A stretch of 63,578 nucleotides of DNA, filler included, from Porpidia crustulata (GCA_964255105.1; 4 parts of 4 records of this genome joined end to end with filler, not necessarily neighbours in it), one strand, 5' to 3'. Shown: positions 26,401-63,578, numbered from the whole stretch's first letter. Made by a program: numbers and translations. Notes: a model not told the origin generated them from the letters alone.

Positions 26401-27095
26401 ACGGCCAAATCATCAAGGCCCAACGCTATGAGCTTGCCGATCAATGCAGACATGCCAGTCTCTAGTTGAAGATAAGGGGTCTCGAGTCCAAGGGCTTTTG
26501 GCACATGTGTCGTTCGTAAGGTAGTAAATGCTATGCGTGCACATTCCGCTTGAGCTATAAGGCCTGCTCGGTCCCTCGAAATTTTGTCGGAAGCTGAGCG
26601 TCGCGATGGACGTGGTTTCTCGGGAGTGCTCGAAAGACGATTGGGACACAGTGGCTGTAAAGGTATGTGACTCCCGGCTTCATGATTTGTAAGGAGGGAG
26701 GAACTTGACGAGCTCCTTTTCATACATGGCTTGGTGCTTGGAGCGAGCGGAGAGGATGGTCTCTTGATAGCGTCGGTGAGGGCCTTTAGAGTTGTGTTGA
26801 TGACCCCGGTAGCAAGTTTAAGTCGTTCTTGTGGAGAGAAAATAGTCGTGGTCTCAGGGACCTCCAAAATCGCAACCTCGACTACTTTCTTAGACCTGTC
26901 ATACGGTGCCTTCGTATTTCGCGTACCCTTTGTTCCTCGGCCGGTGGTGGGAGGCTTTTTTTGTTGACCCAGAAACATCTTCTCTGGTAGCAGAATCGAC
27001 CTCAAGGAGTCTACTGTTGCTTGAGTACATGTTGCTGTTGACACCAGAGAACGATTGATATTTGCTGCCTCTGTTGGCAGCTCTTTACGGGTCAT
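20493..27095 (-). CDS. ESP1: Separase (peptidase C50; Esp1/Cut1/BimB ortholog)
   Basis: ~2100 aa over several exons. C-terminal catalytic motifs FPWESLP, SRLPS, YVLNPAGDL, YFGHGSG, LMGCSSG, LWDVTDKDID, LNGAAPVLYG. Confidence 0.95.
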
Positions 27096-27327
27096 AATAG
27101 TCGCATAAAGGATAAGAATTCAGAGAGAGATCTGGGCCCCAATGCGACGGCCATCTTCTCATACATATTCTGCAGCGTGGAGATAACTTGAAGTTGCAGC
27201 AGTGACTTCCTTGAATAAACAAACAATGATAGGGCTGAAATAAGCTCTCGGTAGAAATTGCCCCCATAAACATCGTGCTTGAACCGAGACCAAGTCTACG
27301 ATTTTCCCCTGATAGAGGCCTTCACCA

Positions 27328-30074: not shown

Positions 30075-30547
30075 CGTGACGTTTCCGACCCTAGTACTAT
30101 ATAGCCTCTGAGAGTCGATGCTTGCGCCCTGTTGAAAATTGTGATACCGAAGCAAGCTCGGTGTTGAGTATCATCAAAATCAGATGGATTTGGTCGGCCA
30201 GGTGGATAATCATATCAACAGTGACGAGTGTAAACAAAAGATATGATCCCTGATCCCTGTTGCGGCTCCAACCTGTTGTCCCTTGCAGTAGCTCCCTTTC
30301 ACGTGCTTTTCCCTCAACGTTTCCCAAAGAGTACGGTTGCGCCCATAGATTACCTGTCCTCATCGAGTTGCATCAGTTGGTAGATGAGATTCCACTTCAA
30401 CTGAAGTAAAGTTTCTGTCCTGTAGTAGAATAGCGTTGTATAGGAGTCTACGATAGTACGGTATGACTACTTCCCCACCTCGATGTTCCACCTAGCATTC
30501 ATTCGTCCACGATATCTCCATCCGGATGATCACCTAATCTTTATATC

Positions 30548-31887
30548 ATGACTTCTGTACTTTCTTATCGACCTTCCACGAGCGGCTCTACTACCGCTTC
30601 CAAACGGCGACCGTCACTGTCCTCCTTCCCTTCATCGCGGACACCTTCAAATCCGTCGGCGCAGAATGCAGCGCCTTCGGCAGCACCTCGTATCCCGATT
30701 CGTCGCGGATCCACTAGTAGCTCGCGCACTCCATCAAGCCCCTCCTCTACACCTCATACAGGCCAAAGAGCAGGTATATTACAACGAACTGGTCAATTGA
30801 AGTCTCAATACCCTGCGGAGTCGACAGAACGCCATGTCGAGTATATACTCGTTGCATCGTTCCACGTTGATCGGGGCCCAATTATGGAACATCAATACCC
30901 AGGGGCAATCAGTGGAGATGAAAATATGTTGGCCGAGCTCATGCTACCTGATCAAGCGCACATGAGAAATGAAGATTGGACCATATTCTTCTTACACAAA
31001 GATACCAGTGAAGACGATGAGAAGGCCGAACAAACCGCCGAGAGAAGAGAGCGGAGAAGGGAAAGGAGAGAAGGCGCAGGACCGACTGGGGTAGGTGATT
31101 CGCAAGAAGGCACTGAAGATGAAGAAGAAAGTGATACAGATACCGACGCCGACGAGGATTTAGATGAGGTGGAAGGTGGAGAAGGGCCGCCGTTGATATA
31201 TGTTTTAAATTTAGTGAATACAAAGCAAGACACAACAGCAAAAAGGTTCCGCCCGTTGTACCCGCTGTGTTATGAATATGAATCTAACTATGCGCTCATG
31301 TAGAGGCGCGGTTGTCAAGGCTATGGCAATATGTACACGACATTCATTCCTTCATATATACAAGGTAGCCGTCAGACGAATAGTGTCCTCTGCACATCAA
31401 AGCTAATATGAAACTTAGCCATTATTACTGTTAGCACTTGAAGAATATTTCAGATCACCATTTCCAGAAACATTAGCGTCATTGTACGATGCAGTCAATT
31501 CAATGGATCTCTCCCTAATGCCTCGACTATCGATTCTCGAACGTCATATACTCCAAGCCAGTGATACCAAAGATTTGTTTGTGGAAAAATTCGAGCAAAT
31601 GATCCAGCAGCGCATGGCCGAAGAATCCAGATCTAATTCCATAACATCTCCAGAATCCCCCTCAAAGCCAGCACTCGAACCCAATAAACATGGGCAAAAG
31701 TATACCGTTCCCCGCGACACACATGAGTTTGAATCCAAAGTCATTTACAACAACATCCCCATCCCCATCAAAGTTCCTACCGGCATCTCCCCCGAAACTG
31801 TGGGCGACTTCTCTCTCATCAAACTGATCCAAGCCTTCTCCGCCCCCCACGCATCCTCCCCTCAACCATTCATGCTGCACCCGCATC
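30548..31887 (+). CDS. mesA: Polarity protein MesA / Afi1-like (DENN-related), 3'-truncated
   Basis: [78 protein letters not shown]; introns ~31246-31303 and ~31365-31418. Confidence 0.88.
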
Positions 31888-31987
31888 NNNNNNNNNNNNN
31901 NNNNNNNNNNNNNNNNNNNNNNNNNNNNNNNTTAATTAATTAANNNNNNNNNNNNNNNNNNNNNNNNNNNNNNNNNNNNNNNNNNNN
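31888..31987. other. Artificial contig spacer N44-TTAATTAATTAA-N44
   Basis: Identical 100-bp spacer. Confidence 0.97.
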
Positions 31988-38784: not shown

Positions 38785-41700
38785 ATGCCTTTCTTTTCGA
38801 AAGTCTTCAGGAGTAATAAGGATGGGTCAGGTGCAACCTCGAAATCGAAGAAGCATGCACCACAAAATGGCGCCGTTCATTTACCACCTCCAAAACCACG
38901 TTGGGACGATGCATGGCTCCGAAAGGACGTCGAACCCGAGGAGGTTCAAGAGCTCCTCAGAGGCTGCATTCAAGAGTTGAAGTCCAAAGGTACACACTCT
39001 GCCAATCCGGCCAAAGAATTTATGGCACCTGAACAGCTGGACTAATCTAATTTCTGTTCGTAGCACTGGATATGCCATTCCTACTTCTACCTTTTAGACC
39101 AGCTTCAGATCCAAGTGCGGCACGCTCGTTCATTCGCAACTATTTCGATGCTGACAAAAACCTCTACCTTCTGGGCGAGGGCCTGGAGCAAGAGCTCCGC
39201 TTGACAGAGCCAATGGTGAGCAAGAAGTATAAATGCGATACCAGGCCCTTACTAATATTTCTAGGTCCTCTGCAGCATCGTGAAGTGGTGTTGGAGCAGA
39301 TTAAGTGGAGGCGTGGTGACCTGGGAAGCCTATGAGCTGTTTCGCATTGGAGAGCAAGGTAGGACAGATGCGACCCTCAAAAAGCATTGGGCTTACTCGG
39401 GATGTAGATTCGGACATGGCCCGTGATGCCTTTGCTACCTTCATACCTATCAGTGTTGAGTCCGACGCACGGACAAAAATCATCTTCGATTTCTTTGATC
39501 TGATGGCTGCAATAGCTGCGCATGGTAAGAACAACGGTATGGGAGGCCGAAAGCTGTCCAGATATGCGGGGTGGTGGGCGTTCGAGCAATTCGATGGTGG
39601 CAATGGTTTCGACGGAGGCTACAAGTCATGGGCAAGGTTGGTTGGAGCGTGAGCCTCAGCCTAACAAAGCTGACAATACTGCAGAGCCGCCGATGCTACA
39701 AGCCACCTATTCTTTGCTTACCTTCGTTCGCTTTCCCCTGACTCTGTCCAAGGAACGAACGGCATCTCAGCTTTGCCGCTTTCTTTGCAAAATCTCGTTC
39801 AAGCGACCGAATATCCGCCCGAGCAGCCAACTCTTAGCGCGGTATCTAAAGTGGTAATGGTTGTAGACTCTGTTTCCCCCACGCCCTTCGCTTTACTACG
39901 CCGTGCCAAGCATTTCGAATACCGGGACGATGATCAAGCGCTTCAGCAATTTTCCAACTACGAGGACCCTGTGCAGGCATTGACTGACGAATGTCGCCGA
40001 GTTCTCAAGAGCATCTCCTCCACGAATCAATCAGCAGTATCCAATTCTAAGGCATCCACCAGCCTCCGTGATGCATCCTGGTCCCGATTTGAAGATATTG
40101 GATTTGGGGGATTGGGTGATGACTCGGATAACGAGGATCCTTCCGCCTTTGGTAGAAAGAGAAATGGGCCGCAGGGCTTGAGATCGGCCCCACAATCGAG
40201 GACGCACGACCTTGGCAGGCCTACGACCCCTTCCTGGGCCGATTTCCTATCAGCTGGTTTTGTCGATGAGCCAGGAAAGGATCATCCTGCGAAACTAAGT
40301 CTACCTGCTGACAAGATGCTGCCGCCCATTGATACCCGAAGAGGACAAAGTTCACAATCGTACCGACGTCCACAAAATAACGATGAGGATCTTGAGCCAG
40401 GTGAGCTTGCTAGTATCAATTTGCTCCACTTTGACGATGCGTTTTGGTGGGTTTGGATCAGTAGCCTGGCTGGAGAAGAACTTGCGGAACGTAAGGGGGT
40501 TTTCGGACGTTGTGCTCTGATCGAGACCAATATCCGCGGAGGGAAATGGCTTGTTCTCGAGGAGATGGTCAAGGGAGCTGCGCCAGAGCCGGAAACGGGT
40601 GCATACATTGCGGAGAAGAAGAGTCGATTTGGGTTCAGTAAGAAAAGCAGACTAAATCGGACAAAAACTAGTTCGAAAAAGACTTCACCTGTGCCTACGC
40701 CGGAGACGTATCCACGAAGCAAACAGCAATCTCCGATGAGCAAAACTAGCATCGGTCCCGACCAGCACGCGCGGATCCAGGCGGCGGCGGCAGCCCTCCA
40801 ACAAAAGCATCGAGATCAAAATAGCACCGAGCAGAAGAGAGGCAGGATGGGGGACGCGGCATCGACGAAGACAAATAGTGTCTTTACGCTACAACCGGTC
40901 ATCATGAGCGAAGCCGGCCCTGCCATGAAATGGGCAAACAGTTATGACAAGAACACCGTTCGAGCTGCGTACTTGGGAAATGACTTTACAGGCAAAGGAC
41001 AAGCGACCAATCTGGGATCCAACCGGCTGCACAATGTTCCGAGTACGAACGGCTCGATAACGCCTATAGTTCGGAAAGAGCCTCTACAGAAAATGGAGTC
41101 GTATGGTTTCCCCAGCCAAGATGCGGACAAAGAGAATCTCCCCCCGGTCCCTGATAAAACAGAGCCTCCTCTACCGCCAGAGCCACCGGTACAGCAAATC
41201 CAATCACAGTCTATAGAGAAAAAACCACCGCCACCTCCTGCTCCTTTACCAGCGGTACCATTCAAAGACCTGCATCCTGCCAACCGGGCTGTCGTGGAGG
41301 CATCTCGAGTCCCTCTACCCGCCGCAACACCTTGGGAACAGCCTCGCCTGGCCGAGGTGCCTCTGCCGGCTGCTACGCCTCCAGAACGATCTCATTCATC
41401 TGGAGAGCAATTTGTAGCTCCTTCAGAGTTGCCACCGAGGGTTGACAACAAGCCGTTACCTCCTATCGAACCGGCAATCGAGTCAACGCCGACGCTGACT
41501 CGGGAAGCCACACAGGAGCCGAACGGCGCCTCATCTACGGCATCATCACCTGAAGTAAAGAAGGCTGGCAAAAGGCTCAAGAAGAGTCAGCCTGGAGGCT
41601 TTAAAGGGTTCTTTGGAAGGAATAAGTCTGGACCAATTGCACCTACTCCACCACGGCCAGCAGATAGCACCGCAGTTGCAGCGGCCAAAGCCGCTTACGA

Positions 41701-42426
41701 GGGGCCTCAAATGAAAGCCAACTATATCGCTCCCGAGGTTCCTAAGCTATCCCGTCGTCTTTCAGGCATGGGACGGAAGAAAGCGCCACTTCCCATCCCT
41801 ATTACAACTTTGCCACCCACTCAGGTCTACAATGAGCCGGTGACAAAGTCAATGGAACCGTCTCCGCTTGAGGCTCCTCATCAAAATTACGACGACTACG
41901 GCTCTCATGCCAGCCTCAGTCGCGTTGACTCGAGCGAGCAGCGCCACGCTGACCGCGAATTTCAGACATTCGATCAAGGTCCGATGACGGATCAGCCAGC
42001 CTTTGTGCCTGAAGACGAATACGAAAGGCGCTCGGGTTCTGCTACTCCACGGCAGTATGAGCCTGAGCCTATTCAAAGGGCATATGAGCATGATCCGATG
42101 CAAATGCCTTACGAACCTCAGCCAATCCAGCAACCATATCATCATGATGATATATCCGAGGTCTCGGAGGAGGAACAATCGAAAACGCCGCCACAAGATC
42201 GTTGGGCACAGATCAGGAAGAACGCCGCAGAGCGTGCTGCAAAGCAAAGCCAAGACCGTGAGAGGACAGATGAAACCGAGGAAGAGGAAAGTGGGGAAGA
42301 GAGTAAGTCATCGCAGCAGCATGTTAAACCAATACTAAATCTGTTCTAGCAATCGAATCACGAGTTGCTCGCATCAAAGCTAAAGTTGCAGAACTGACGA
42401 GCAACATGGACGGCGTTCGTGCATAG
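38785..42426 (+). CDS. Msb1-like morphogenesis protein (DUF1708 / RhoGAP-like N-terminus, long Pro-rich C-terminus)
   Basis: Multi-exon. LDMPFLLLPFRP, KWCWSRL.GGVVTWEAYELF, DFFDLMAAIAAHGK.NGMGGRKLSRYAGWWAF, SWSRFEDIGF, DDAFWWVW; last exon IESRVARIKAKVAELT. Confidence 0.85.
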
Positions 42427-47738: not shown

Positions 47739-47838
47739 NNNNNNNNNNNNNNNNNNNNNNNNNNNNNNNNNNNNNNNNNNNNTTAATTAATTAANNNNNN
47801 NNNNNNNNNNNNNNNNNNNNNNNNNNNNNNNNNNNNNN
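47739..47838. other. Artificial contig spacer N44-TTAATTAATTAA-N44
   Basis: Identical 100-bp spacer. Confidence 0.97.
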
Positions 47839-49544
47839 CTTACCAACCATGATGAAGCTGATGCCGTAGGACATGTCTGTCATGTCGACGACGGTGAGGA
47901 TGGTGCCGTAGCTGGCTTGGCAGTAGGAGCCGCTACCGATGCCGAGGAGGATGGTGTAGCCGTAGATTTTGGCGGTGGAGGTATCGACAGTGATTTGGGC
48001 TAAGGGGATAATCCGGCTTAGCGATTAAGAGTTTCAAGCTGGTGGGGAAGGCAGGGCGGATGGGAGGATGGTAGGGGATCGACTTACACATGAGGACACC
48101 ACCGATGATGCCTAGGATTGTACCACAAACGTACCAGGGCTTGTAGTAGCCCGTTCTTGACATGAAAGCTCCCTGTGCAAGGATGCAGGCACTGAGGACG
48201 AAGATAAATGGTAAAAGCCGGACGGCAGCTTGGAGGGCAGAATCGCCACGTGTGAATTGAAAGTAAATGGGGATGTAGTAGATTGGGACGAAAGCTGCGG
48301 TGGCACCTGTGGCCATTAGGAGGAAGAGTAAGATGGCCTCTCTGCTCTTCAAAAAGTGGACTGGAAACATGCGATCCTTGGTCGTGGTAAAGAATGCCAG
48401 GTACTGTTGAGTAGCAAAGGCAATCCATACAACGGCTCCAACAACGAACAAGGCGATTATTTGAGCGCTATTCCAGGCGTATACTGCACCACCAAAGCTG
48501 ATGGCCATGATCCAACAGACAAAACCACCGATGCTGAGGACCGCTCCGAGATAATCGAATCCTGATGCTCGCTTGGAGTAAAGGGTGCCTGGAGCGGGAT
48601 CGAACGATGGGAGGATAAAGATATAGACAGGAAAGAAGATGCCATTAAGTATCAGATTGATGTAAAAGGCCCATCGCCAAGTGACCTTTTCAAAGCCGCC
48701 ACCAACGACTGGGCCGAGGACAGTGCCAATGCCCCAGAGCAGGCCACTAGTCGCTTACGTTAGGCACTCCTATGATTTTAGCAGAATGTACTTACACTAA
48801 GCTCAAGTATGCCGGGCGTTCTTTGTTTGTGGTATTGACCGAAAGCAGAGTCAAGACACCCAAGTACATACCATTCCCGCCTGCACCAGCTATAACACGG
48901 CCTACAATCATAGCGTTCATATTGGGAGCTGCACCGCAAAGGGCCGATGCTGCCAGGAAGAGTACGCTCGAGATGATGTACAGCCATTTGGCATTATAAA
49001 TGCCGTAAAGTTTCCCGAAAGGCATGACCATGGCAACACCACCAATCATGAATCTATGAGCCACGTTCGTTGGTTAAATGAACGGATCGACTTAAGTTTG
49101 ATGGTGATGACTCACCCAACGGAAAGCCATGGGAGCTTTTCAACACCTTTTAAAGTATTTACGATTGCCTGCGATATCTTAGCTGGCGAAGTAAAGTCGG
49201 ATTTTCGTCGGAGATTGCGCATGAAAAGTGCAACAAGAAACGCAAGAAAGCAACTCACGGGAACAATGTCGGCAACGATGGTATTGTCGAGGGCATATGT
49301 GAAGATGCTTGACACAGTACTGACAACGATGAGGAACCACTAGAGGAATTCAATTGACGCGCATGGTAGAAGAGCTCCGAGAGCTGGTGAAAAGTACAGC
49401 AAGACCTTGAACCTTCCTGGCTGGCTCAGCAGCGGCAGGCGACAGATCTTTCTCAATATCAGAATGTGGGTCGTTGACGCTTCCTAGACCGGCCACGACA
49501 GTACTGGGTAGAGGCTCTTGTTTGGTTTCCATTGTCACGTCCAT
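47839..49544 (-). CDS. MFS DHA2-type (14-TM) efflux pump, 3'-truncated
   Basis: Multi-exon. ALDNTIVADI, LPWLSVGF, PFGKLYG, SALCGAAPNMNAMIVGRVIAGAGGNG, GTVLGPVVGG, WRWAFYINL, YYIPIYFQF. Confidence 0.92.
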
Positions 49545-50559
49545 CAGGATAGCCTAGAAATAGCAGGTAGAAAAATGGTCCGCAGCTATAGCCTTATGGT
49601 TTTCAAGTCAATTGGGAAGAATAATTGGGAAAGCAGAATGAGCAGAATGGAAAAGCTACTGTATTATTCAGTGTGTATGGTATGAAGAACAAGCACTGGA
49701 AATCAAGGAGTTGTGCTGTGCAGTCATTAGCTGTCATTCTGATTTCAAAGCAATTTGCACAATTCCAGGTTGACAGTTAGGATAGTTGGGATCTGCATAC
49801 AATCTAGATGATCGGTTGTAAACAATCAAAGCTGTAAAGTATCAAATAGAGTACCGGGTCTGTATAATTAGCTTACGTGAGCACGCGCGGCTCGATTAGG
49901 TTCGGTCCGGGCCCGATACAGAAGTTGATCGGCGCATATTCGCGGAAGGCTTCCGTTATGGGTCCACCCGTGCCGCGTCCATTTGGTCGTTGGGTGAATT
50001 GAGGCGAAACGCTCGCGTAATGTGTCATACCATCACGCAGTTCCAATGAGACGGCGAGTGAGGGGAGCGCGTGCCGGTCAATTCATGCACGAGAATCGCA
50101 TCACAGCCCTAGATCCATTTTGTGGAGTGCTCCACACGCCGGAGGCTCGTCCGATCGTCCGTATTGCAGAGTAAAGTACAGTAAGGTACTTGCCGTAGTG
50201 TTAGCCGCACTTTCATTCCTCTAGCCGAAACGCGGGGAACGCCAGGGAAAGCGGCTCGGCGAAAGCTTCATCGATCTCCTTCAACTTCAATGCACCAACA
50301 CCAAGTGTCAACAACGTACGGAGTGCGCTGTCAACGCTTGTACCGATCAGAAGCGGTTTGGCGACTTGTATGGCACCTTGGTCATGTTGATCGTCTTGAT
50401 GCCACGCCATCTAGCATCTAAGGCGTTGGTTGGAGTCGATGGACTGACTGTTCTTTATGCCTACCCTCAGCCTCCGGCGTTGCAATCTCATCCTCCCAAT
50501 CCAGCTGCCACATTTTTTCCTTCTTCAAAACAAACAGGAAAGGAATCAAGAGCCGCAAC

Positions 50560-51183
50560 ATGACATCTGCCCCCCCAAGTCAAGTCGAGAAAGCTCCTCA
50601 GACATGCCTCGTCCCATATCTCGACCCAGAAATCGCACCCGAAGCAGTGGCTGCTAAGCTCGCACAGCTGCCTTATAAGCGGAACATCTTTCTGCTACTG
50701 GGACAGTCCTCGGGTCTTTTCCCCCCCTTGATGAGCGTTTATCAAGCCTGCTTCAATGGAGAAACACGCAAGATCCCCCTCCTCGAATGGCAACTTGTCG
50801 TCCTGCGAATCGCCGCCCGCCTCGATGCTCCGTACCCTTGGGATGTCAACGAACCCGTGGCGAGGCTGCAGGGGATGAGTCAAGAAAAGGTCGACAAGTT
50901 GCGCGAGAGTGGCGAGTCCATCGAGGCCGATACGGAGGGCCCATGGACCGAGAGAGACCGCGCCATCATTAGTATTGTCGACGAACAACTCAAGTCATAC
51001 ACTAACGACGAGGGCACTATCAAAGAAGCCCGCCGTCTCTTAAGCGTCGAGGAATTGGTCGAGATATTCATCATCATCGGAATATACACACTCATTGCAC
51101 GTATTACCAAGGGACTCCGGATTGACTTGGACGGCGAGATCCCCGGTATGGCAGAGAAACTGAAGGCTCTTGTGACGAGTTGA
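50560..51183 (+). CDS. AhpD/carboxymuconolactone decarboxylase-like protein
   Basis: Intronless, 207 aa. NIFLLLG, WQLVVLRIAARLDAPYPWDVN..VARLQGMSQEK, WTERDRAI, EELVEIFIIIGIY fit the CMD-like helical fold. Confidence 0.7.
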   Translation: MTSAPPSQVEKAPQTCLVPYLDPEIAPEAVAAKLAQLPYKRNIFLLLGQSSGLFPPLMSVYQACFNGETRKIPLLEWQLVVLRIAARLDAPYPWDVNEPVARLQGMSQEKVDKLRESGESIEADTEGPWTERDRAIISIVDEQLKSYTNDEGTIKEARRLLSVEELVEIFIIIGIYTLIARITKGLRIDLDGEIPGMAEKLKALVTS

Positions 51184-51982
51184 GCGTTTGAGTTGGAAAG
51201 GACGGACTCGGCTTCGGGAAACCTGGATGAGTGGGGGGACAAGTTTGTGGGGGTCTAGTAGTGGATCTTGACTTAATTTGTGCACATGAGAGACTCTTTC
51301 TTCTTGGAAATGAAAATCAGACCGTGAAACGGTAATCCGTGGTGCCGATTGCGAGAAAACTGCCTTCATTCAGTGACGCGTTTGCAAAGTGAAAAATTGT
51401 TCACACCGTAGTCGGACTCTCCAACACCAGCAACGAAACGTCCAATGTCGCCCGTGCTAATCGCAGAAAGTATGCTGGACTTGCTCAAACAGCCTTCCAC
51501 CCAGCTAAGAATCAATGAGCACTAGCACATCCTCCCTAGACTCGTAGGCCTCTACAGCAAAGAGTTTGGAGAGATGACTCGAGCTATTGATCTTCCTCGT
51601 GATCCAATCGCGGAATCACACTGCAGGCTGATGGTCCGACGGCCAGACGCTCTTTCTTGGCATTTTTGCCTGCGTGGAAGGGGCAATGCCGACCTTGACT
51701 AAGAGAGACCAGCAACGGCTGGAATGTAACCATGGCGATCTCTATGAGGTATTGCAGCATGAGAAAGGCGTGTCGCAAAGTACGAGGAGTCTCATGCACT
51801 GCAAACGCACCTGCATGCATCTGCACGCGCCCTGCTATGCTTGAAAGAACTCGCCTACTCAGGATCGGCCTTGTTAATCTTGACAAATTTTCACAGAGCC
51901 CTTGGCATATCAGCAAAACCCCACTTAAGATTGATTTTCCCCATACTGAACGAATCGTCGTCCTGTCCTCTCACCATCAACC

Positions 51983-53086
51983 ATGGAATCCACCAAAACA
52001 CTCAGCAATCGACCAAAGTCTTTCAACGCCAGCGCTCTGACTTTTGCAACGCCAGCAAAACAGGCAGCTACCGTTATCAGACTTCAAACATATCCTGTTC
52101 CAGCTCCTGCAAACAACGAAATTCTTGTTCAGCTTCTTGCAGCGCCAATTAACCCGCAGGACTTCCTGATTATTGCTGATCTCTATCCGATCAAGCCCAA
52201 CTATCACATATCCGGGGAGGCCATTCCTGGATATGATGGTGTTGGACGTATCATCGAAGTTGGGATCGAAATCCATAAGTTCTCTGTAGGCGATCTCGTC
52301 ATCCCCAGATCTCAGGGGTTCGGAACTTGGAGGACACATGCCATCTGCGATGAAGAAAGTCTTATCAAAGTCCCAAATGGTCTAGATATACACTCTGCAT
52401 CGATCCTCAAGATGACGGTCTTGCCGGCGTATTTTCTGGTAGAAGACATGCGCGATCTAAGACCCGGAGATTGGATCATACAGAACGCGGCCACGAGCAC
52501 CATAGCCCAGATGGTTTCTCAATTTGCCCGGCTGAAGGGAGCCCACACTATCAGCATTTTTCGAGACTCGCCCTCTGCAGTTGATAATGATAAGACCAGG
52601 AAGTCTCTGTTACAAAAGGGAGCCGATGTTGCTCTTTCCGAGTATGAATTAGCTGCCACCAACCAAATCGATGGGAAAAGAATCGTGTTGGCACTAGACT
52701 CCGTGTGGGGTGCTTCAGCGGAGAAAATAGCTGCAAAAATGCCCAAGGGTGGTTCCTTTGTCAACTTCGGAGCGCTAAGTGGTGGTGGTCAGATGTCAAC
52801 GATTCAACTCACATGGGACGATATCTTTTGGCGATCTATTGCATTGAAAGGTTACAAGTCAACTGAGAGCCTAGCTCGGAGGTCCCAAGAGGAGGTCGAT
52901 GACCTAGTCAAGTGGCTAGTAGGCCTTTTCGACAAGGGAACGTTGGTCATGCCAAACTATACAAGGATTCCTTGGAGTTTAAGTATGAGCGAGCCTGAGC
53001 AGCTTGAGCAAAAATTGAAGACTGTACTTGAGAGTGCCCAGGGAGTGCAGATCCGGAAAAAGAAGTACATATTTGACTTTTGTTAG
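51983..53086 (+). CDS. MDR-family trans-2-enoyl thioester reductase (ETR1/MECR-like)
   Basis: Intronless, 367 aa. LAAPINPQD..LYP, PGYDGVG, GDLVIP..GFGTWRTH, GDWIIQNAATS. Confidence 0.88.
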   Translation: MESTKTLSNRPKSFNASALTFATPAKQAATVIRLQTYPVPAPANNEILVQLLAAPINPQDFLIIADLYPIKPNYHISGEAIPGYDGVGRIIEVGIEIHKFSVGDLVIPRSQGFGTWRTHAICDEESLIKVPNGLDIHSASILKMTVLPAYFLVEDMRDLRPGDWIIQNAATSTIAQMVSQFARLKGAHTISIFRDSPSAVDNDKTRKSLLQKGADVALSEYELAATNQIDGKRIVLALDSVWGASAEKIAAKMPKGGSFVNFGALSGGGQMSTIQLTWDDIFWRSIALKGYKSTESLARRSQEEVDDLVKWLVGLFDKGTLVMPNYTRIPWSLSMSEPEQLEQKLKTVLESAQGVQIRKKKYIFDFC

Positions 53087-53718
53087 TATTAGTTAGTCAA
53101 TATCAAGTTGAGGCTGTTGTCGAATTTTCCCGAGGTAAATCTCCGAGATAAGACCAATTCCAACCTCGTAAGCTGTACTATACATCCTTCCAAGGATCTC
53201 TGCCGCATAGTAGACATTTGAATCTGAACGATTGACTGCCTGGGTTAAGCCATCTAGAAAGGGCAATCCTCTGGGTAGCCTAACTCCTGTTGGTATATAT
53301 GGGCCCCACGATTATGCCGAAATGTGACCCATGTGTTGCCACGTCGTCAACCCACCTATTCCTAAACCCCCATATTCCGACTGCATAGCTTCACGGAATT
53401 ATACCGCATGGCAAGCTTGAGTCGGACGTAGAAATTCGCCTAAGCTTTGTTCCAATTGGGCGCTTTCACGTCCACACTCAGGTTGTCCTTCTTCGAAACA
53501 GCTAATCGTATTCTGGGGCAAGGCCTCGTATCTGACAGTACGTACTAATGGAATACACAGCGTAAGTCAAGATCTACAGAAGATTTCAGAAGCATAAATA
53601 CCTCATCTTCTGGCTGGATAAGATCAAGAACCAGATCTAACTCACCAGAATACCTTGCGTTTTCCCCTGTCATACAGATCTCAGCGATCGAAGAGGCCTC
53701 TCAGATTTATTGCCCATC

Positions 53719-54700
53719 ATGCTGGGAAGTGTTCTACCGTTCACGGTACGTTATAGCCTTATCGGCACGATAAAGTTTGCTTGTGATTAGTCATCGCAAC
53801 TTCCTCAATTTCAACCTCACTCCATTCAAACTCCGCATCTCGCTAGGATTTCGAGTGGAGTGCTTCATGTTTTCTTTACGACCAAGGGCTAATTCGTCAT
53901 GAGTGGCAGCCACAAGTCGCCGAAGTGGTGAGCCAGTATTGTGAAGATCATTCCTCCAAGCTTCCCCCAAGCTTGATCGAGAACTGGGAATGGACCTCCG
54001 AAAGTTTCGGAGATGCGGACAAAATGTCTTCCAAGCTGCAGGTCGGTTGGAAAAAACCGATATGCCAAGTCTTCCTATGCTTACGAATTGACTGTAGGGC
54101 CAATGGATGATCTTCACTGCCCAAGACCGCAAAGCAAAGCGCGTTCTTGAGTTCGGATGCTATAGTGGCTACAGCGCCCTAGCATGGTATGAAGGAACGA
54201 AGATGACCGGTGCTGAGATCGTTACTCTAGAGCTCAGCCAAGTTATGATCGATGCGTCCCGCAAAGTCTTCGACAAATACAATGTCAACGATCGCGTCAA
54301 ACTAATCGAAGGTCCAGCCGACAAATCGCTTGACACCTTGACAGGCACGTTCGACATTATCTTCATGGACGCTAACAAGGACGGATACGAGGGCTATGTC
54401 AAAAAGATCTTGGACAAGAAACTTTTGTCAGCAGATGGCATCATCCTTTGTGACAACGGTAAGACCAGGCAACCCAGATCAAGAGCCAGACTAACTAATC
54501 CATTTTGCCTAGTTTTCGCTCGCGGTCTCACCATAGGCAAAGACGTCAGCCCTCACCTGAGCAACGCAGTACGACCTTATTGGAGCAGCTGTGGCAGAGC
54601 CCTTGCTCAGTTCAACAATTTCGTGGCACATGATCCAAGGGTTGACGTAACAGTTCTTCCTTTGTTCGACGGTGTCAGTCAAATCAAGTGGAAAGAGTAG
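53719..54700 (+). CDS. SAM-dependent O-methyltransferase, family 3 (CCoAOMT/COMT-like)
   Basis: Four exons. RVLEFGCYSGYSALAWYE, IVTLE, FDIIFMDANKDGYEGY, ILCDN|VFARG, LPLFDGV. Confidence 0.9.
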
Positions 54701-55687
54701 ACATTGCTGTAGATTAGTGCGTACGCACACTAAGGGACAATACACGGTTTCTTGTTCTTTACATTGCTTCTTTTCTCGGCCATTAGGCTTGATCCAGGAA
54801 CAAACTCTACAATGTAGCTGCAAATTCGGCTAAGTCGTCCTCCATTGGTCCGGGAAAGCCACTGCTGTCTATGCTGCTGTGCACCGTCGATCATCTACAA
54901 ATCATCCTCGGTTGTGCGTGCTGAGTAGTCAATATCTGCTTGTCAGAGACTATCCTACCCATGCCATTCGTTTTCTGATGCAACGTACCACTCGAAGATC
55001 CACCACATGCTAGAGCACATCGCTTGTGATTACCACGTTGACATCCAATGACGGATCGAGACGGGTGCTCGTTGGTCTTGCCACCATGTCTCATATTTGG
55101 ATTTACCCAGCTGCTCGGGGTAATGGATGGGTTGTCATTGCAATATCTGCATTCTTTTAAGCGAAACACGGGCTGAGCAGCGCCAGCGAACTCTTGTCAC
55201 CTACCTTATGGGTATCCTACGGCTCAACATGACACGTCAGGCTAACTCTTGCAATCACTAGCAGTTATTATTTGTAACAGTTGCCGCGGTAAAAGTGGCA
55301 TTGATTTGATAGTAAGCCTAACGCCCAAATCTCGCAGATTCATCTAGCCTTGGAAGCATACATACTTTGGGACTAGACAAGCGAAAGACTCAAGATATCG
55401 TCAGTCCATAAAGCTGACAAGTTGTAAGTTTTTGCCTAGAATCTATTTATGATTATTGATTTTCCTCAGACACGAGTACCAAATGATACAAGTGTAACAT
55501 TTCGCCAGTTTCCCAGCTTGGTTTTCCTTTAACAATGTTTATCCACACAAATTTCCTTAATGCCCTGTACGTCGCTCTTCTACTTTCGTATCTCCCATCT
55601 TTAGCTTGCTTCACTCTCAGATAGAACTTGGAGCCGCCAATTAGACCTTGCGTCTATATAATTTATTGGGTCAAACGAAGTTCAGCC

Positions 55688-58600
55688 ATGTATGTAAAGG
55701 AGAGTTCTGGTATTGAGACTGCTTTGCCTGGGTTTGATGATGCGGTCGAAGCGGAATTACCCTTGACGCCAATCCAAGAGGAGCTTATCTTCAAAATTGC
55801 TCGTTCGCCTGATTCCGAAACAATCGAATTTCAGCTCTATCTACCTGATCGCGTATTCTCCAGTTTCGACCTCATTCAGCACACATGGCAAGCAGTTGCA
55901 AGCCATAATCCGGTTCTTCGGACACAAGTTGACCTATCCGACATTCTCACATCTCCTACCAAAGGTAAACAGCGAATCTTGAAACGGGTATCCCTGCTTC
56001 AACTCTTTCGGCCCATGCTCTCTCAGCAAGGAATATTTCACGAAGCTGCCCAATTGGTCATCAGGACTCACAAGGGGCGACTTACGGCTTTTGTTCACCT
56101 TCATCGCGCCTTGATAGATAATGAATCTATACGTCTCATTCGGAGAGACTTCGAGCTGTTTTATAACGGACTGGCGTTTGATAGACACCCAAGAACTGAG
56201 AAATTCTTCAGGCGTACGTGTTTAAGGGATCGCGAGGTTGCTAAAGTCTTTTGGAATACCAATCTCGAAGGCCTAGTTAGCACGCCAATTCATGGCCTTC
56301 CAAGCAAGGTTACAGCACCGGACCTTTGGGCAACAGCAGCTCTGAGCCGAGATACCTCATATCAGGTACAGAATCTTGCTGCTAGATGCAAAGTACCTGT
56401 CCGAACGGTTTTTCATGCAGCATGGGCGTCTACTTTGGCGTGGCATACCGCAGCTGCGAGCAATTCCATCGTGTTTACGGCCACCGGACGAGATCTCTCT
56501 ATGCCCCAGAATCGTTTGGTCGTCGGAAATGCCGAACAATTTTACCCGCTTAAAATCGCCTCAACACAAGAAACCTTGATTAGTGACTGGCTCAACGCTA
56601 TCAACGATTCTGACATCGAAGCATCAAGACATGCATTCATTGGGTACGACTCAATTATGTCTGAAGGTTTTGCATCTATCGGGCAGACATTGGTAACCAT
56701 TCGCTCAAATGAAGATAACCCCACGAAAAACGTGAGTTTCTCCACCAATCGCAAATAGATATCGATTTATCACACTACATGCATAACAGAATCTCTAGAA
56801 GCTGACTTCTGACGATAGTTTCAGGTATACTCCGACAATTTCGCACTGATTCTGGAGATCGTTGTCCTAGAAGAGATCACCCTAACGTTGCATTATAGCC
56901 AAGAAGTTCCAGATGGTCAGGCTCGCATCCTTCTAAACCACTTCGAAGCAGCCATAACCAGTATATCCGACGATAAAGTACAGCGAATTAACGATATCAG
57001 ACTCATCTCCGCGTCTGAGAGGCGATATCTTCTAGATTTAGCACAACCTACGACAGAACCTGCCGGAGGCCTTGTTCATCAGTTATTTGAGACTCAAGTC
57101 CATAAGACTCCAGATGCATCAGCGGCACAATTCGAGTCTGATAATCCTTGGTCCTACTCAGAGCTCAATAAGCTTGCTAACGCAGTTGCTCGCCAACTGA
57201 AATGCGGACGAGGATCCTTTGTGCCTGTGTGCATGCACAGATCGATCAACCTCGTTATTTCACTTCTGGCCATCCTGAAGACTGGAGCTGCGTATGTTAC
57301 ACTCGACCCCGATGTGCCTGCACAGCGAAATGAGTTCATGTTTCGGGATGTTCGCGCCCCCTTTGCCTTAGTTGATCAAGCATCGAGAGGAAAGCTTCCC
57401 TCCGAGGTTATCATTGAGAACTTGATCGAGAGAGCACTGTACCAAGATAATTCGGATCTTCTAATTGAACAAAGCTATGACGATGCTGTCTACGTCATCT
57501 ACACTTCTGGCTCGACGGGTGAGTGAACTTGGAAGATCTGCTCGGGTTATCGTCAGCTAATCTTGGCTACCTTGGAAAGGCCACCCGAAGGGCGTTCCTC
57601 ATAAACATCGAGCTGCTTACAGCGGACTTGCAGCGTTTCCGTCTATACCAGATCTTCGCCAGCTCTTATTCCACAATCCAGTATTTTCGGCGGCGCAGAG
57701 GTCGATTTGGTCTACGCTGAAGCAAGGCGGCTGTCTGTGTTTGGCCAGTAAGAAAAACCTCACGGTATTCATAGGAAATACCATCAATTCAATGGAAGTA
57801 GGTTCAGGGGATCTCAAAGTCCACTTAAATAGAAACTAAAGCGACAGGCTGCAGATCAACACGATTGACGTCACACCGTCGACAGCCACTTTGATTACGC
57901 CTGGATCTGTGCCAAATCTAAAGCGCATGACGGTTGCGGGGGAGCTCATCAATCCAGCTTTAGTTCCAGTCTGGATTGATCGATTGGAGCTGATGAATGC
58001 ATGTGAGTAATCTAATATCAATGCCTTCGTGGGTTCTTTTTAAATGCCGATAGATGGGCTGAGCGAGAACACCCAATTTAATTGGCGTCATGTTATAAAG
58101 AAGGGCCAGAACGCCCAGATCATTGGTCGGCCAACGGATACGACAACTGCATACGTCTTATGCCCAGGCACGACCCTACTGGCTCCGATTCTAGTTCCAG
58201 GAGAGTTATGTCTTGGCGGGCATCAGCTCTCGCAAGGCTATCTGAATCGCCCAGAAAAAACACGTGAAGTTTTCATTGATAATCCTTTTGGCTTGGGTAA
58301 ACTGTATCGAACTGGTGACCTGGTTGCTACACACGCAGATGGTAGCATCGAAATGGTTGGAAGAATCGATTTTTCAATCAAGATCAACGACCAACGCGTC
58401 GATCCTGGCGAGTCCAATTCGATCATTCAATTGCAGCCCTATGTCCAGGACTCTGCGGTAGTCGCTGCTTCAATCTCTGGACGTAGACGACTGGTGGCTG
58501 TTGTGGTACTCAAGGATGAAAATGCTTACACTTCACCGCTGAAAGTGCTCCGCAAGCAATTAGAGGACCAGTTGCCACATTATATTGTCCCAACATACTG

Positions 58601-61600
58601 GGTCATTCGTACAGAACTTCCACTTAACATCAATGGCAAAGTTGATGTCCCCGCTCTGCGTAAGATCTGCGAAGATTTAGGCAGAAATGGCGTTATGCAG
58701 AGACAGAGCGAGTCGGCCGATCCCAAGTCCGAGATACTCTCTCCCGTTGAAGAAAGTCTCAAACGTCTTTGGTCTTTGGCGCTCTCAATACCTTCCGACG
58801 AAATTTCTAAAACTGATTCTTTCCTCGCAATCGGTGGGACTTCATTAGACGCCATCAAGATATGTTCTGCTGGCTTAGAGGCTGGCCTCCGAATAGATCT
58901 TGCACAGCTCCTCCAGGGATACTCCATCTCCCAATTAGCACAGGAACATACACTACAATCCGATGTTGAAATAGCTCCGACTCCCAAGCCGTTCTCTTTG
59001 GCGCCTAAACACTTTCCGATCAATTTGGATGAAGTCGAAGATTTATTCCCAGCAACTCCATTACAAGAAGGCTTGATCGCAGACTCGATACTTGGAAAAA
59101 CTGACTACATGTTTAGGAAAGCTTTCAGCTTCAAGGGTGTCCAGACTTCTCGCCTACGCGATGCTTTCGAGGTGGTCGTCAAGGAAAACCAGCTTCTCCG
59201 TACGGTATTTGTTGCATATGGCATCTCGTTTCTCCAAGTGATCCGGAAGCACATTATACTGCCGTGGTCAAACATAGACATGGATCTGGATACTTACCAG
59301 AGTCGAAAACGCCACGATGTCGAGTTTGTTGCTCTAGACATGCCGTTGCTACGAATTACAATCTTAAGATCAAGTGTAATGGTTGTTGATACGCATCATG
59401 CACTATTTGACTTCTGGTCTACCCAATTTCTCTATGAGGACATTCGAGCCGTCCTCAAAGGTCGGAAACATATTGTACGCCCGCCTTTCAGCATATTTTG
59501 CCACTACCTCAACAGTCAGGATAAGACCATATCTCGCCAATTTTGGAAGACCTATCTTGAAGGAGCAAAGCAAACTTCGCTCAAAGTCGTTCCGGGTGAG
59601 GGGCTTTATTTGGAAGCGGACCTCAACTTTGATCTCAAGTCTGCCGTATCTAAGAATAAGCTGACCGCGGGGGTCCTGCTCTATGCCGCTTGGGCGATCA
59701 CCCTTTCTGCCTGGAACTCTTCGAATGATATTGTTTTCATAGTCAACATCTCCGGTCGTGAAGTCCCAATAAAAGGCATCCTGGCATTGAATGGCCCAAC
59801 CTTAGCTACGGTACCGATGCGAGTAAGGATCAAGAACTCAGTCGACGTGCTCGAGCTCGCACGGACGCTGATTCCAGAATTTTGGAGGCTCGCAAAGCAT
59901 GCTCATATTGGTTTAAGGAACGTCCTCCAGGCTTCGGGGCTTCCTTCATCCTTCATCAACAGTGCAAGCAACTTTCTCATAACTTTAAGGCAAGATGAAG
60001 AGTGTGACGTATTGCAACCTTTGAACATCAAACACACAAACCACACAGACTATCTGACGCTAGAGGTGGAAGACAGGAACCTTCATCGTATTAAAATTTT
60101 CTCGAACAGAAGGTTCACTAGCGCCGATAGAATCCTCCAAGACGTGATCGAAGTTCTGCGAGTGACCGTAGAGGAACCGCAGACCAAAATCAACGATGTT
60201 TTACTGCGAATTGGACCTCATCATCCGCGTTTGCCAAAGCCCATACCTGCAAAGCTGTCTCGATCAAGTGATGTATCAAAGCCAGTATTGGCTAAGGTTC
60301 TCCAACCAGACGACCACCATACACAAGTCATGGATGATTGGTGGAAAAGTTACGTTGCAGACTATACACCATCGGTACTAGTCAGTTGTCCCGGTGAGCA
60401 GCAGACTACCATCAAGGAATCCTTGTCGGTTGATGTGGAGGCAGCAGCTACGAAATTGGGAGTCTCTCAGGAAGCTCTATGGTATACATCTTGGGGTGTA
60501 GTGCTGGCTCAACATACCAACACCCAAATTCCTCTGTTCGGTGTCATTCGTTCCGATAATAACATTTCCACAAAGCATGGTAAACCCTTTCTACACTGCA
60601 CACTGGAACGGGTGACTTTGTCAGAGGCCCAAGACCTGTTGTTGGAGGTCGTCAATTCTGTTCATCGGGAACTGTGCAACAAGACTGATTCCAGCGGTTT
60701 ACGAATCGAACAGATATTGGAATTTGCCTCTAACAATTCGAAACCGTTTGACACTTTCCTTGAATTGAGCATTGCCAATTTCGAAGATGAGAGACACACG
60801 TCGGATTTGAGTATTTATGGTAAAGCATTCGGTTTCCAAAACACTTTTCTGAGAATTGACTGTCGGCCTCTCAAGACAACAATGACTATATGTAGCAAGA
60901 TGGAGAAAATCCGCGCCGAATTCATCCTAGATCAAATGTTCACCATAATCCAAATCCTAGTCGAGAATCCAGACTTACCCACTGGATCGGTCAACGTAAT
61001 TGGTAAAACGGAACGAAATCTACTCCATACTTTGGCACGTTTCACGACCCCCGAGGTACATTTGGTACACAGTCTGTTTGAGGAGCAGGCTCGTCAAACC
61101 CCAGATAGATTAGCTTTGCAGTGGGAGTCGTCCGAGTCGCTGACGTACAAAGCGCTCAACGATCGGGCTAATCGGCTTGCCAGGTATCTGATTTCCATGG
61201 GTACCACCTCGGAACAGATGATACCGCTGCTGTTGGATAGATCGATCTACACGATCATTTCCATCCTGGCTGTCTTGAAGACTGGAAGTGCGTATGTGCC
61301 AATGGACCCCGAGAATCCGGCCGAGCGTAATCTCTTCATTCTTGATCAAGTTCAAGCCAAGATCGTCATTACACATAGCTCGTACACAGATTTTGCTGCT
61401 TTGCACAGCTCAAGGTCAATTTTTATAGACCAGCTACCCGATCTTGATTCATATTCTACCACCGATACACATATTGGTCATGTCAATAACCTAGCCTACT
61501 GCATCTATACGTCAGGCTCGACGGGCGCTCCTAAAGGCGTCAATATACAGCATCGTACAATCTTGGTCGCAGTTGAGGGAATGATCATAGACGAAGGCAT

Positions 61601-63578
61601 GCAGCCAGATTGGAGATTCCTCTCATTCGCTAATTACGTATTCGACGTCTCTGTTCATGACATATTTTGTGTCCTGAGCACAGGTGCAACTCTCTGTATG
61701 GCCTCCTCGGATAGGCTGATGTCTGATCTTGCGGGTGTCATCAATGAGACACAAGCCACTCAGACCTTTTTGACTCCGACTGTGGCTAGACTGATTTCAC
61801 CTGCCGACGTCCCCGGATTACAGACTTTGATATGCAGTGGAGAGGCAATGACAGCTGACATAATTCGATCCTGGGCATCGGAACGGACACTCATCAACTA
61901 CTACGGACCAACGGAGTGTGCTGTCAACGTGACAATCAAATTCGTTGGTCCAGATACCAGTCCAACCAACCTAGGAAAGCCGATCCACACTGCATCAGCT
62001 ATGATTATCGAAAGAGCGGGTACTGACTTGGCTGTTTACGGTTCAGTTGGCGAAATCTGTATCGGTGGCGGTCATGTTGGTCAAGGCTATGCAAGTCTCT
62101 CCCCTGCGCCAGATTACTTCCTGACACCGTCTAACAAGAGCCAATCCGCAGATGAATAGAGAAGACCTCACTGCAAAAGTTTTTCTGCCCAGCCCCATCC
62201 CAAGTGTAGGACGCATGTATCGGACAGGGGACCTTGGCCGATGGCTCCCTGGTGGAAACCTGGAATACCTAGGTCGCATGGATCATCAGATCAAGCTTAA
62301 TGGTCATCGGATAGAACTTGGAGAGATCGAGCAAGTCATCCTTAGGAGCGGTCTAGTGCAAGATTGTATAGCAATGGTACTGGACGAATTACGCAGGCCT
62401 CAACTCGCGGTATTCTGCATCTTTGAGACTTCTACCGAAATAGCTATCGAGGAACCTTTCAAGTACACCTTCAACTTGCTCCAACTCAAAGGAAGTCTCG
62501 GTAGTCTGGCACATTACATGTTACCGAAGTTTGTGTTCCCTATGGGCCGCTTTCCACGCTCGTCAGCGAATAAAACAGATAGACGGCGGCTAGCAAAGCT
62601 CGCAGAGGCGATTGGCACGTCCAAGCTCTCTCAATACTCTTTGGACGTGGTGGGTGTCGAGGTAAATAGTTTCAAGTCTCCTATATCTGTAGAGGAGATT
62701 TTCCTGCAGAACAAATGGTCGGAATTATTTCAGATTGATAAATTTGATATTGGTATGTCACTCTTTTACCCTACTTTCACCATGCTTCCAATGGTCCAGT
62801 CATCGCATTTCAGCCTTTAATTGACCACTAATTCCACTTGTGTAGGAGCTGAAGCCAATTTTTTCGCTTTGGGTGGTGATTCCATTGCAGCCATCAATCT
62901 GGTGAGTTTGTGCAGGAAATCGAGTTACAGTCTGCTTGTCAGCGATGTCCTTAAGTTGGCAACACTCGGTCGCATCGCAACCCGTTTGACAAAGGACTCA
63001 CTCCGAGTAAATGGCTTATCAAAACTTGTGGAAAAATATGTGCCACCGACTGCCATCCACGGATTACTCCAAAAACATAGCATTAAGCAGTGGTGTATCG
63101 AATACTTTTACCCGGTTCCACCAGGTCAGGCAGAGTTTCTCACCCAAGGAGCTAAGGAATCCCAGATCTGGGTAGTAACCGCTGGTCGGCCCTTCGCAAC
63201 ACATCACAGCATAGAAAAATACAAAAACCTCATTCAAGAATTGACAAGGATATATGATATCCTTCGCACGACCTTTGCCAACCTAGAAGGCCACGGCTGG
63301 GTGGGCGTAGTCTTCAAAGAGCCAGCGATGGACTTCTCCACACGGGAATGCGTAGTAGCTGAGAGAAGCCAGATCATCGACGAGATCCAGAAGTCGCGTT
63401 TCGTCTTCGGGGAACCATTCATCAACTACAACCTGCTCGAGTATCGTGATAGCCCCTGGGAAATCGTCATCAAAATGGACCACGGCCTCTGGGATGGTAC
63501 CTCCCTCCGAATATTAGATGACGCCATTCTCACGCTCCAAGACTCCGGCATTCGGGGGGGCGGGGGGCGGGGGGGGGG
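55688..63578 (+). CDS. Non-ribosomal peptide synthetase, C*-A1-T1-C-(half C)-A2-T2-C..., 3'-truncated
   Basis: Spliced over six introns, including GC-AG 62091-62151. A1: YTSGSTG.PKG, YRTGDL, NGKVD. T1: GGTSL. C: HHALFD. A2: [27 protein letters not shown]2: GGDSI. Last C: MDHGLWDG. Confidence 0.95.

Follow-up and report, generated by a model that had tools for sequence, protein, structure and literature searches.

The fourth contig of a 63,578-nucleotide stretch of Porpidia crustulata DNA (GCA_964255105.1; the whole stretch is called the window here) carries five neighboring genes, among them a nonribosomal peptide synthetase (NRPS) that sequence comparison places in the SidE clade and an O-methyltransferase (OMT) identified as the orthologue of PaMTH1 of Podospora anserina. 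The five-gene set is co-conserved, with the NRPS, an enoyl reductase, an AhpD-like protein, and a major facilitator superfamily (MFS) transporter recurring across fungal classes. We judge it fairly probable that this is a SidE-type cluster in which the first adenylation domain (A1) activates fumarate or a related C4/C5 diacid and the second (A2) an amino acid, with the neighboring enzymes tailoring the product and the MFS pump exporting it. The NRPS clade and an OMT orthologue with a solved structure were already known; what appears to be new is the position of PaMTH1 inside a conserved SidE-type cluster and the usual presence, beside SidE-clade synthetases, of a reductase and an AhpD-like protein.

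Gene content of the fourth contig

The window consists of four contigs of about 15.8 kb each, joined by N spacers with an TTAATTAATTAA stop linker between them (N runs at 15900-15999, 31888-31987, and 47739-47838); because separate contigs were joined, distances across them are meaningless. The cluster fills the entire fourth contig (47839-63578, 15.7 kb), which is fungal sequence with short introns (51 to 164 nt) and GT-AG borders. Genes were called from Pfam matches on stop-to-stop open reading frames (ORFs) combined with homologue-guided splicing:

47839-49544, minus strand: MFS transporter (start at about 49544, from the ORF list; several exons with unrefined borders; cut by the contig start)
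50560-51183, plus strand: AhpD/carboxymuconolactone decarboxylase (CMD)-fold protein, 207 aa, one exon (assigned from homologues, predicted fold, and ESM Atlas)
51983-53086, plus strand: ETR1/MECR-type medium-chain enoyl (thioester) reductase, 367 aa, one exon (Pfam ADH_N)
53719-54700, plus strand: PaMTH1-type class-I OMT, 234 aa (exons 53719-53745, 53910-54041, 54098-54458, and 54513-54700)
55688-63578, plus strand: SidE-clade bimodular NRPS, seven exons, 2491 aa present, no stop (3′ end cut by the contig end)

An earlier note on this DNA had described these five gene types, four of them co-oriented and the pump divergent, and the Pfam matches and splicing bear that description out. The cluster is thus cut at both ends, through the MFS gene at the contig start and through the NRPS gene at the contig end.

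Domain organization of the NRPS

The NRPS exons lie at 55688-56731, 56825-57518, 57580-57797, 57855-58002, 58054-62090, 62152-62752, and 62846-63578 (plus strand), separated by introns of 51 to 93 nt, one of which has a GC-AG border. This is intron 5 (62091-62151; GCAAGT...CAG), where an alternative GT donor would add four residues within the conserved GxGY-xNRxxLT stretch. Pfam searches and motif mapping gave the domain order C*-A1-T1-C-A2-T2-C (C, condensation; A, adenylation; T, carrier; C*, N-terminal condensation-like), the last C being present only in part. All domains are on the plus strand:

55688-56980: C* (Pfam Condensation, partial, E 9e-10)
57068-58739: A1 (FSAAQR, A4 region, at 57684-57701; A5 motif YGLSEN spans intron 4)
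58752-58964: T1 (Pfam PP-binding; IGGTSLD, Ser present)
59037-60200: central condensation domain (Pfam Condensation, E 1e-26; intact HHALFD at 59391-59411)
60207-61049: insert between C and A2, about 255 to 290 aa (placed by motif spacing; no credible Pfam family)
61077-62685: A2 (code DVHFISYVNK)
62713-63003: T2 (Pfam PP-binding; LGGDSIA)
63061-63578: start of a terminal condensation-like domain (N-terminal part of Pfam Condensation; DHGLWDG at 63478-63498)

The best full-length relative is a 2710-aa protein of Neofusicoccum ribis (P0002), 36 to 49% identical over its residues 21 to 2435 (tblastn). Alignment to relatives of about 2700 aa, P0002 running on that far, indicates that some 265 residues of the final C domain are absent from the contig. 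The NRPS would therefore be bimodular, and the further modules that the earlier note had allowed for are unlikely. That note had also let the synthetase begin with A1, overlooking the C* domain that comes first. In C*, the motif HRALID (56096-56119) has Arg in place of the second, catalytic His of HHxxxD, a motif intact in just 3 of 36 aligned family members. Since so few members keep this His, C* is probably catalytically degenerate, with a likely structural role. The central C domain reads HHALFD at this motif, and the pattern HHALFD[FYH]WS is kept in relatives.

With the insert before A2, 704 aa separate the HH and A3 motifs, versus about 440 to 450 aa in 2500-aa relatives; the insert was seen solely in the window NRPS and its closest relatives (P0002, P0008, and P0024). 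It resembles residues 1198 to 1301 of the same NRPS (24% identity over 105 aa, pairwise E 5.5e-6), a weak likeness to the C domain that comes before it, in the second half of that domain, which suggests that it may be a partial domain duplication.

A constant acid code and a variable amino acid code

Substrate codes were extracted by aligning the A domains with the four that GrsB (P0098) contains; the Pro, Val, and Orn codes obtained for GrsB in this way agree with those in the literature. The A1 code is SARDTAAQFK (S235, A236, R239, D278, T299, A301, A322, Q330, F331, and K517). Asp235 binds the α-amino group of an amino acid substrate; its replacement by Ser in A1, with Lys517 kept, therefore points to a substrate that has no α-amino group. 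We compared A1 of the window with those of 35 relatives of 2400 to 2800 aa, picking the domains by position and not by signature (P0097 yielded no A1 under the extraction rule). S235, A236, R239, Q330, and K517 were common to all 36, and position 299 was Thr in most.

A2 behaves differently. Asp235 and Lys517 are kept in every relative, whereas the remaining code positions vary: the 57 A2 domains compared across the family have 24 distinct codes, and the window code, DVHFISYVNK, is unique in that set. A2 most likely loads one α-amino acid, whose identity is not predictable from the code. An acid-type A1 followed by an amino acid-type A2, as the earlier note had proposed, is thus what the codes point to: A1 lacks Asp235 and has Arg239, and A2 keeps Asp235 and Lys517. 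The constant A1 signature and the variable A2 code together suggest that the family joins one constant non-amino acid to changing amino acids. In SidE itself, A1 reportedly prefers fumarate and A2 alanine.

Placement within the clade of SidE

The SidE clade has been described by the architecture "C-A-T-C-A-T-C except Afu3g03350 and Afu3g15270" in Bushley et al. (PMC2644324), and the domain order of the window NRPS agrees with that definition. Afu3g15270 and Pa2_7870 are given as SidE homologues (Bushley and Turgeon 2010, PMC2823734). On published phylogenies and source-given names, we place the window NRPS in this clade. Its characterized member, SidE (Afu3g03350) of Aspergillus fumigatus, yields fumarylalanine according to papers citing Steinchen et al. 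2013, "but not siderophores" (PMC4162504), and is reported to act without helper enzymes. The proposal in the earlier note of a fumaryl-type N-acyl amino acid gains support from this placement.

Relatives of the NRPS occur in Aspergillus, Penicillium, Histoplasma, Blastomyces, dermatophytes, Podospora, Xylariales, Botryosphaeriales, and lichen fungi. A search confined to the C-terminal half of A1 and the T1 region brought in shorter relatives of two kinds. Those of about 2350 aa, from Aspergillus section Fumigati, are named "nonribosomal peptide synthetase 7" by their sources (P0203, P0208, P0225, and P0239) and have the A1 code SARDVGSQLK; those of about 2050 to 2150 aa have no C* and the A1 code SARETGAQLK, and one of them (P0215) is source-named "nonribosomal peptide synthase side." In a FastTree phylogeny of A1, which did not include Afu3g03350, the SidE- and NRPS7-named proteins and the window protein fell on one long branch apart from GrsB, the window protein being sister to P0002 and P0008.

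SidE resembles the window NRPS in being bimodular with a terminal C domain and in taking an α-amino acid in its second module, and the SidE/NRPS7-named relatives share the A1 signature without Asp235 (S235, A236, R239, and Q330). In contrast to the window NRPS, SidE has neither the N-terminal C* nor the additional stretch of about 255 aa that precedes A2. The A2 code of the window also differs, its gene is flanked by reductase, AhpD-like, OMT, and MFS genes, and its A1 pocket differs from that of the short SidE-like proteins at positions 278, 301, and 331 (D278/A301/F331 in the window versus E278/G301/L331). A second point of comparison is the NRPS7/PesH cluster of A. fumigatus (Afu3g15240-Afu3g15290), whose NRPS is likewise a SidE homologue (PMC2823734) and whose product is given as "not known" in PMC5144971 and PMC3689640; no product was named in the pesH/NRPS7 literature since 2015 that was searched. 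NRPS7-named orthologues are 48 to 52% identical to the window protein over the C-terminal half of A1 plus T1 and share its A1 signature (SARDVGSQLK), but they have no full C*, and their A2 code, DGYNAGSICK, is unlike that of the window.

Co-conservation of the gene set

In Podospora anserina, six consecutive genes, Pa_2_7870 to Pa_2_7920, include all five gene types of the window plus a cytochrome P450 (supplements of PMC3869774, except as noted for Pa_2_7910):

Pa_2_7870: NRPS
Pa_2_7880: PaMTH1
Pa_2_7890: putative trans-2-enoyl-CoA reductase
Pa_2_7900: putative MFS drug efflux transporter
Pa_2_7910: function listed as unknown; the same as P0143 (PODANS_2_7910), AhpD-like
Pa_2_7920: P450, pisatin demethylase-like

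PODANS_2_7910 is 57 to 60% identical to the AhpD-like protein of the window and is its orthologue; the OMTs of the two loci are about 70% identical. The gene order differs from that of the window, and the P450 is not on the window's cut contig. A Sordariales relative of the Podospora NRPS (P0105) has no insert before A2 and carries the A2 code DAFMLCGILK, unlike the window.

Outside Podospora, the accession numbers of the NRPS and the AhpD-like protein are 2, 2, 2, and 4 steps apart in Neofusicoccum ribis, Acarospora aff. strigata, Sclerophora amabilis, and Lasiosphaeria hispida, respectively, the four genomes checked. By manual comparison, 18 of 71 AhpD-like homologues lie on a contig of the same size as that of a listed NRPS homologue. 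Alignment of the AhpD-like protein also retrieved 11 metagenome loci (L001 to L011), three of them too short to judge (L001, L007, and L011). The NRPS adjoins the AhpD-like gene in 4 of the 11 (L003, L004, L009, and L010), a reductase is present in three (L003, L004, and L008), and an MFS gene in four (L002, L003, L004, and L009). A P450 gene lies directly beside the AhpD-like gene in all three loci whose gap was examined (L003, 7523-9169; L004, 4181-5661; L008, 1490-2773; all minus strand), in agreement with Pa_2_7920 of Podospora. The cluster-linked reductases are 34 to 43% identical to each other. L003 additionally carries a GMC-type FAD oxidoreductase (22-1250, minus strand), about 3 kb past its MFS gene.

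Taken together, the metagenome loci and genomes indicate a cluster core of NRPS, AhpD-like protein, reductase, and MFS transporter, with the OMT and P450 as frequent extras. Lack of co-conservation had been named beforehand as an outcome that would speak against a common cluster; what was found is a run of consecutive genes in Podospora and neighboring NRPS and AhpD-like genes in all four genomes and in 4 of 11 metagenome loci. No statement that SidE-clade NRPSs are usually accompanied by a reductase and an AhpD-fold protein was found in the literature searched, and nothing relevant appeared there, by titles and the starts of abstracts, on a fungal cluster pairing a carboxymuconolactone decarboxylase with an NRPS. 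Nor did anything useful come up there on fumarate and the adenylation domain of SidE.

Proteins encoded beside the NRPS

The OMT matched Pfam Methyltransf_3 (PF01596) at E 3e-22 (79 bits versus a cut-off of 22). Against PaMTH1 (PDB 4QVK and 4YMG), E was 2.5e-77, with 127 of 182 aligned residues identical (about 70%, counted by hand). The N-terminal exon likewise matches PaMTH1, although the gene model is least secure at its small first exon. The stretches DANKDGY and ILCDN are identical between the two proteins; we take them to hold the Asp/Asp/Asn metal ligands of CCoAOMT-like enzymes. By this sequence evidence, the window OMT is assigned as the orthologue of PaMTH1. PaMTH1 has been described as a stand-alone polyphenol methyltransferase and, for 25 years, as a "longevity assurance" catechol methyltransferase; in vitro it transfers methyl groups to the vicinal hydroxyls of polyphenols, and it occurs in cytosol and mitochondria (PMC2806012). 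No published link between PaMTH1 and a conserved SidE-type cluster appeared in the literature searched. The statement in the earlier note that no characterized pathway matches this locus accordingly holds for the cluster product, which has not been described, but not for the NRPS family (SidE) or for the OMT (PaMTH1, 4QVK/4YMG, about 70%), both of which have.

The reductase aligned with human MECR (PDB 7ayc/2vcy/1zsy) at E 6e-42 over residues 27 to 351 and with yeast Etr1 at E 1e-29, and these were its best solved relatives, well above quinone oxidoreductases. ADH_N scored above and ADH_zinc_N below the Pfam cut-off. Like the mitochondrial enoyl-thioester reductases Etr1p and MECR, with which it aligns over its full length, it has a Tyr aligned to a MECR Tyr (ADLYPIKP versus QGNYGLLP), presumably that of the active site. 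Unlike them, it is a cluster-linked paralogue with an altered glycine-rich stretch. For the transporter, Pfam MFS_1 was found on two ORF pieces (47936-48754 and 48795-49073), and orthologous pieces 50 to 73% identical stand beside AhpD-like genes in the four metagenome loci with an MFS gene.

No Pfam family matched the 207-aa protein even at E<=10; the Pfam CMD model (PF02627) thus does not reach it. Among its 71 fungal homologues, 10 carry PF02627 and several are source-named AhpD-like. An AlphaFold model built from a 36-sequence alignment had a pLDDT of 78, lower in residues 1 to 70. Foldseek gave 15 matches at E<=0.001, and the matches listed were of the AhpD/CMD family, headed by 2gmy, 2prr, 2oyo, 6k40, and 6ohj (Bmp8), with TM scores of 0.55 to 0.68 (query normalized) and 0.71 to 0.77 (target normalized) at probability 1.00, as for an AhpD-like helical fold. 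The nearest ESM Atlas cluster (score 0.98) was CMD-like, and PF02627 was present on 61% and 12% of the members of the two nearest clusters. The all-helical fold is therefore common to this protein and the AhpD/CMD superfamily (Atu0492, 2GMY; AhpD-core, 2PRR/2OYO; debrominase Bmp8, 6OHJ). It differs from that superfamily in its cysteines: the CxxC of AhpD proper is not in the 207-aa protein, which has only Cys16, invariant in the 36-sequence alignment, and Cys62, not conserved. Cys16 lies in the conserved TCLVPY motif (residues 14 to 21; window 50560-50640), modeled with moderate confidence within the poorly modeled N-terminal segment. Five arginines, R41, R70, R83, R132, and R181, are invariant in the AhpD-like family. 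Four AhpD-like homologues of about 200 to 210 aa (P0147, P0150, P0179, and P0183) are source-named "trans-2-enoyl-CoA reductase" or "mitochondrial enoyl reductase"; these names may reflect models fused or merged with the neighboring reductase gene.

The other three contigs of the window do not supply the rest of the NRPS or of the MFS gene, and no P450 lies on them. They carry ordinary fungal genes, encoding a separase (Peptidase_C50; 20496-27119, minus strand), a UbiA prenyltransferase (6866-7774), an Afi1-domain protein (30530-31300), and an Msb1/Mug8-domain protein (39674-42346).

Expression and copper

Two motifs that we take to be Mac1-type copper-response elements were counted in the window. 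TTTGCKCR occurred 7 times against 10.3 expected, its sole match in the cluster lying in the reductase coding region, and TGTGCTCA occurred twice against 2.8 expected, which is no enrichment; neither was present in the cluster intergenic regions. In Podospora, the two of the six genes that are tabulated for grisea, a mutant of the copper regulator, fall together: Pa_2_7870 goes from 964 tpm down to 16.7 tpm and Pa_2_7880 from 5272 tpm down to 334 tpm (supplements of PMC3495915). GRISEA senses copper, and genes for copper transporters are among those it drives (PMC3495915 and PMC3869774). Because added copper failed to restore PaMth1 transcription in grisea, the authors read PaMth1 as dependent on GRISEA (PMC3495915); the same paper treats the NRPS Pa_2_7870 in its siderophore section.

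Discussion

In the SidE-type pathway that we favor, A1 would adenylate a small acid without an α-amino group, fumarate or a related C4/C5 diacid, with Arg239 holding the distal carboxylate, and load it onto T1. A2 would load one α-amino acid onto T2, the central C domain would form the amide, and the terminal C-like domain would release an N-(dicarboxyl-acyl) amino acid for export by the MFS pump. By homology to SidE, fumarate is most likely the acid. The reductase, the AhpD/CMD-fold protein, and the OMT would either modify this scaffold or supply its acid. Etr1/MECR act on trans-2-enoyl thioesters, of which a fumaryl thioester is one, and the simplest role for the reductase would therefore be reduction of the fumaryl thioester or amide to the succinyl form, on the carrier or after release. 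The AhpD-fold protein might bind or isomerize a carboxylate-rich intermediate through its arginines and single Cys, and the PaMTH1-type OMT might methylate a hydroxyl; since PaMTH1 takes vicinal diols in vitro (PMC2806012), an aromatic residue hydroxylated by the P450 would fit. Homology stands behind the NRPS logic only, and these three tailoring roles are guesses.

Several observations weigh against this pathway. The link to SidE rests on published phylogenies and source-given names, the sequence of A. fumigatus SidE not being part of the comparison, and the NRPS and MFS genes are incomplete here. The A1 pocket differences from the short SidE-like proteins mean that the acid could differ. 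In the reductase, two glycines of the MECR stretch NASNSGVGQ, presumably the nucleotide (NADPH)-binding glycine motif, are replaced (NAATSTIAQ). SidE is said to act without helpers, yet a reductase and an AhpD-like protein are constant companions here, which hints at different chemistry. None of the 11 metagenome loci has the OMT, and two long ones, L005 (20.6 kb) and L006 (8.1 kb), show only the AhpD-like gene of the set. Finally, the Podospora genes diverge in an aging series (MFS ×0.19, OMT ×0.38, P450 ×0.65, NRPS ×0.92, reductase ×1.8, and AhpD-like ×1.5; PMC3869774). Set beside the drop in grisea, these profiles indicate that the NRPS and OMT are co-regulated in one comparison and not in general.

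Some of these points would also suit a genuine cluster in which A1 loads a 2-oxo or 2-hydroxy acid (2-oxoglutarate, 2-hydroxyglutarate, or malate), leading to a depsipeptide, a morpholinedione, or another scaffold, with the reductase and the AhpD/CMD-like enzyme making or trimming that acid. Loss of Asp235 tells only that an α-amino group is absent, and the pair R239/D278 resembles K239/D278 of the bacterial Glu code and R239/N278 of the aminoadipate code of ACV synthetase, which would fit a C5/C6 diacid. The departure from the short SidE-like code, the helpers that SidE reportedly does not need, and the five invariant arginines of the AhpD-like family, which would fit a carboxylate-rich substrate, point the same way. 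However, positions 235, 236, 239, 330, and 517 are identical clade-wide and 299 is mostly Thr, which argues for one shared acid type, and the only assayed member reportedly uses fumarate. The HHxxxD motif of the central C domain is ordinary, and the contig holds no ketoreductase for a 2-oxo acid. We regard this other acid as unlikely, although worth keeping in mind.

It is less probable still that the genes are mere neighbors, the OMT detoxifying catechols, the reductase and AhpD-like protein being mitochondrial or redox housekeeping paralogues, and the NRPS alone making a fumaryl amino acid. The in vitro activity of PaMTH1 on polyphenol vicinal hydroxyls and its place in cytosol and mitochondria (PMC2806012) would agree with this, as would SidE reportedly working alone, the metagenome loci without an OMT or with a solitary AhpD-like gene, and the divergent aging profiles of the six Podospora genes. 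Against it, the absence of a PaMTH1 homologue from Sordaria macrospora (PMC2851567) is the kind of patchiness that cluster genes tend to show. Genes for the NRPS, reductase, AhpD-like protein, and MFS transporter moreover recur across fungal classes in differing orders and orientations, the reductases form a cluster-linked paralogue group with 34 to 43% mutual identity, and NRPS and OMT drop together in grisea. The least probable of the explanations weighed, and in our view a very doubtful one, is a metallophore cluster making a siderophore-like or copper-binding product under metal starvation. The contig carries no hydroxylating or N-oxygenating gene, and the presumed Mac1-type motifs are neither enriched in the window nor present in the intergenic regions of the cluster. 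The adenylation domains in module 1 of SidE are sister to those of ferrichrome synthetases (PMC2644324), and Pa_2_7870 and PaMth1 depend on copper-sensing GRISEA (PMC3495915 and PMC3869774), both in its favor; SidE, however, makes fumarylalanine, "but not siderophores" (PMC4162504), and copper addition failed to restore PaMth1 transcription in grisea.

Few NRPSs are as widely retained in ascomycetes as those of the SidE clade, of which just one member has a known product. Many of them travel with fixed helpers (an enoyl reductase, an AhpD-fold protein, and an MFS transporter, often with a P450 or an OMT), so that their chemistry is probably richer than fumarylalanine. For PaMTH1, we tentatively suggest, as a possibility short of an even chance, that it is a tailoring enzyme of the cluster whose native substrate would be the cluster product, a reduced, oxidized, and methylated derivative of an N-(dicarboxyl-acyl) amino acid, made under GRISEA control and affecting redox or metal balance and thereby Podospora lifespan. 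The orthology of the window OMT to PaMTH1 offers a testable answer to what the natural substrate of PaMTH1 is and why its dose alters lifespan, and it points to Podospora, a genetically tractable host with high expression of both the NRPS and the OMT.

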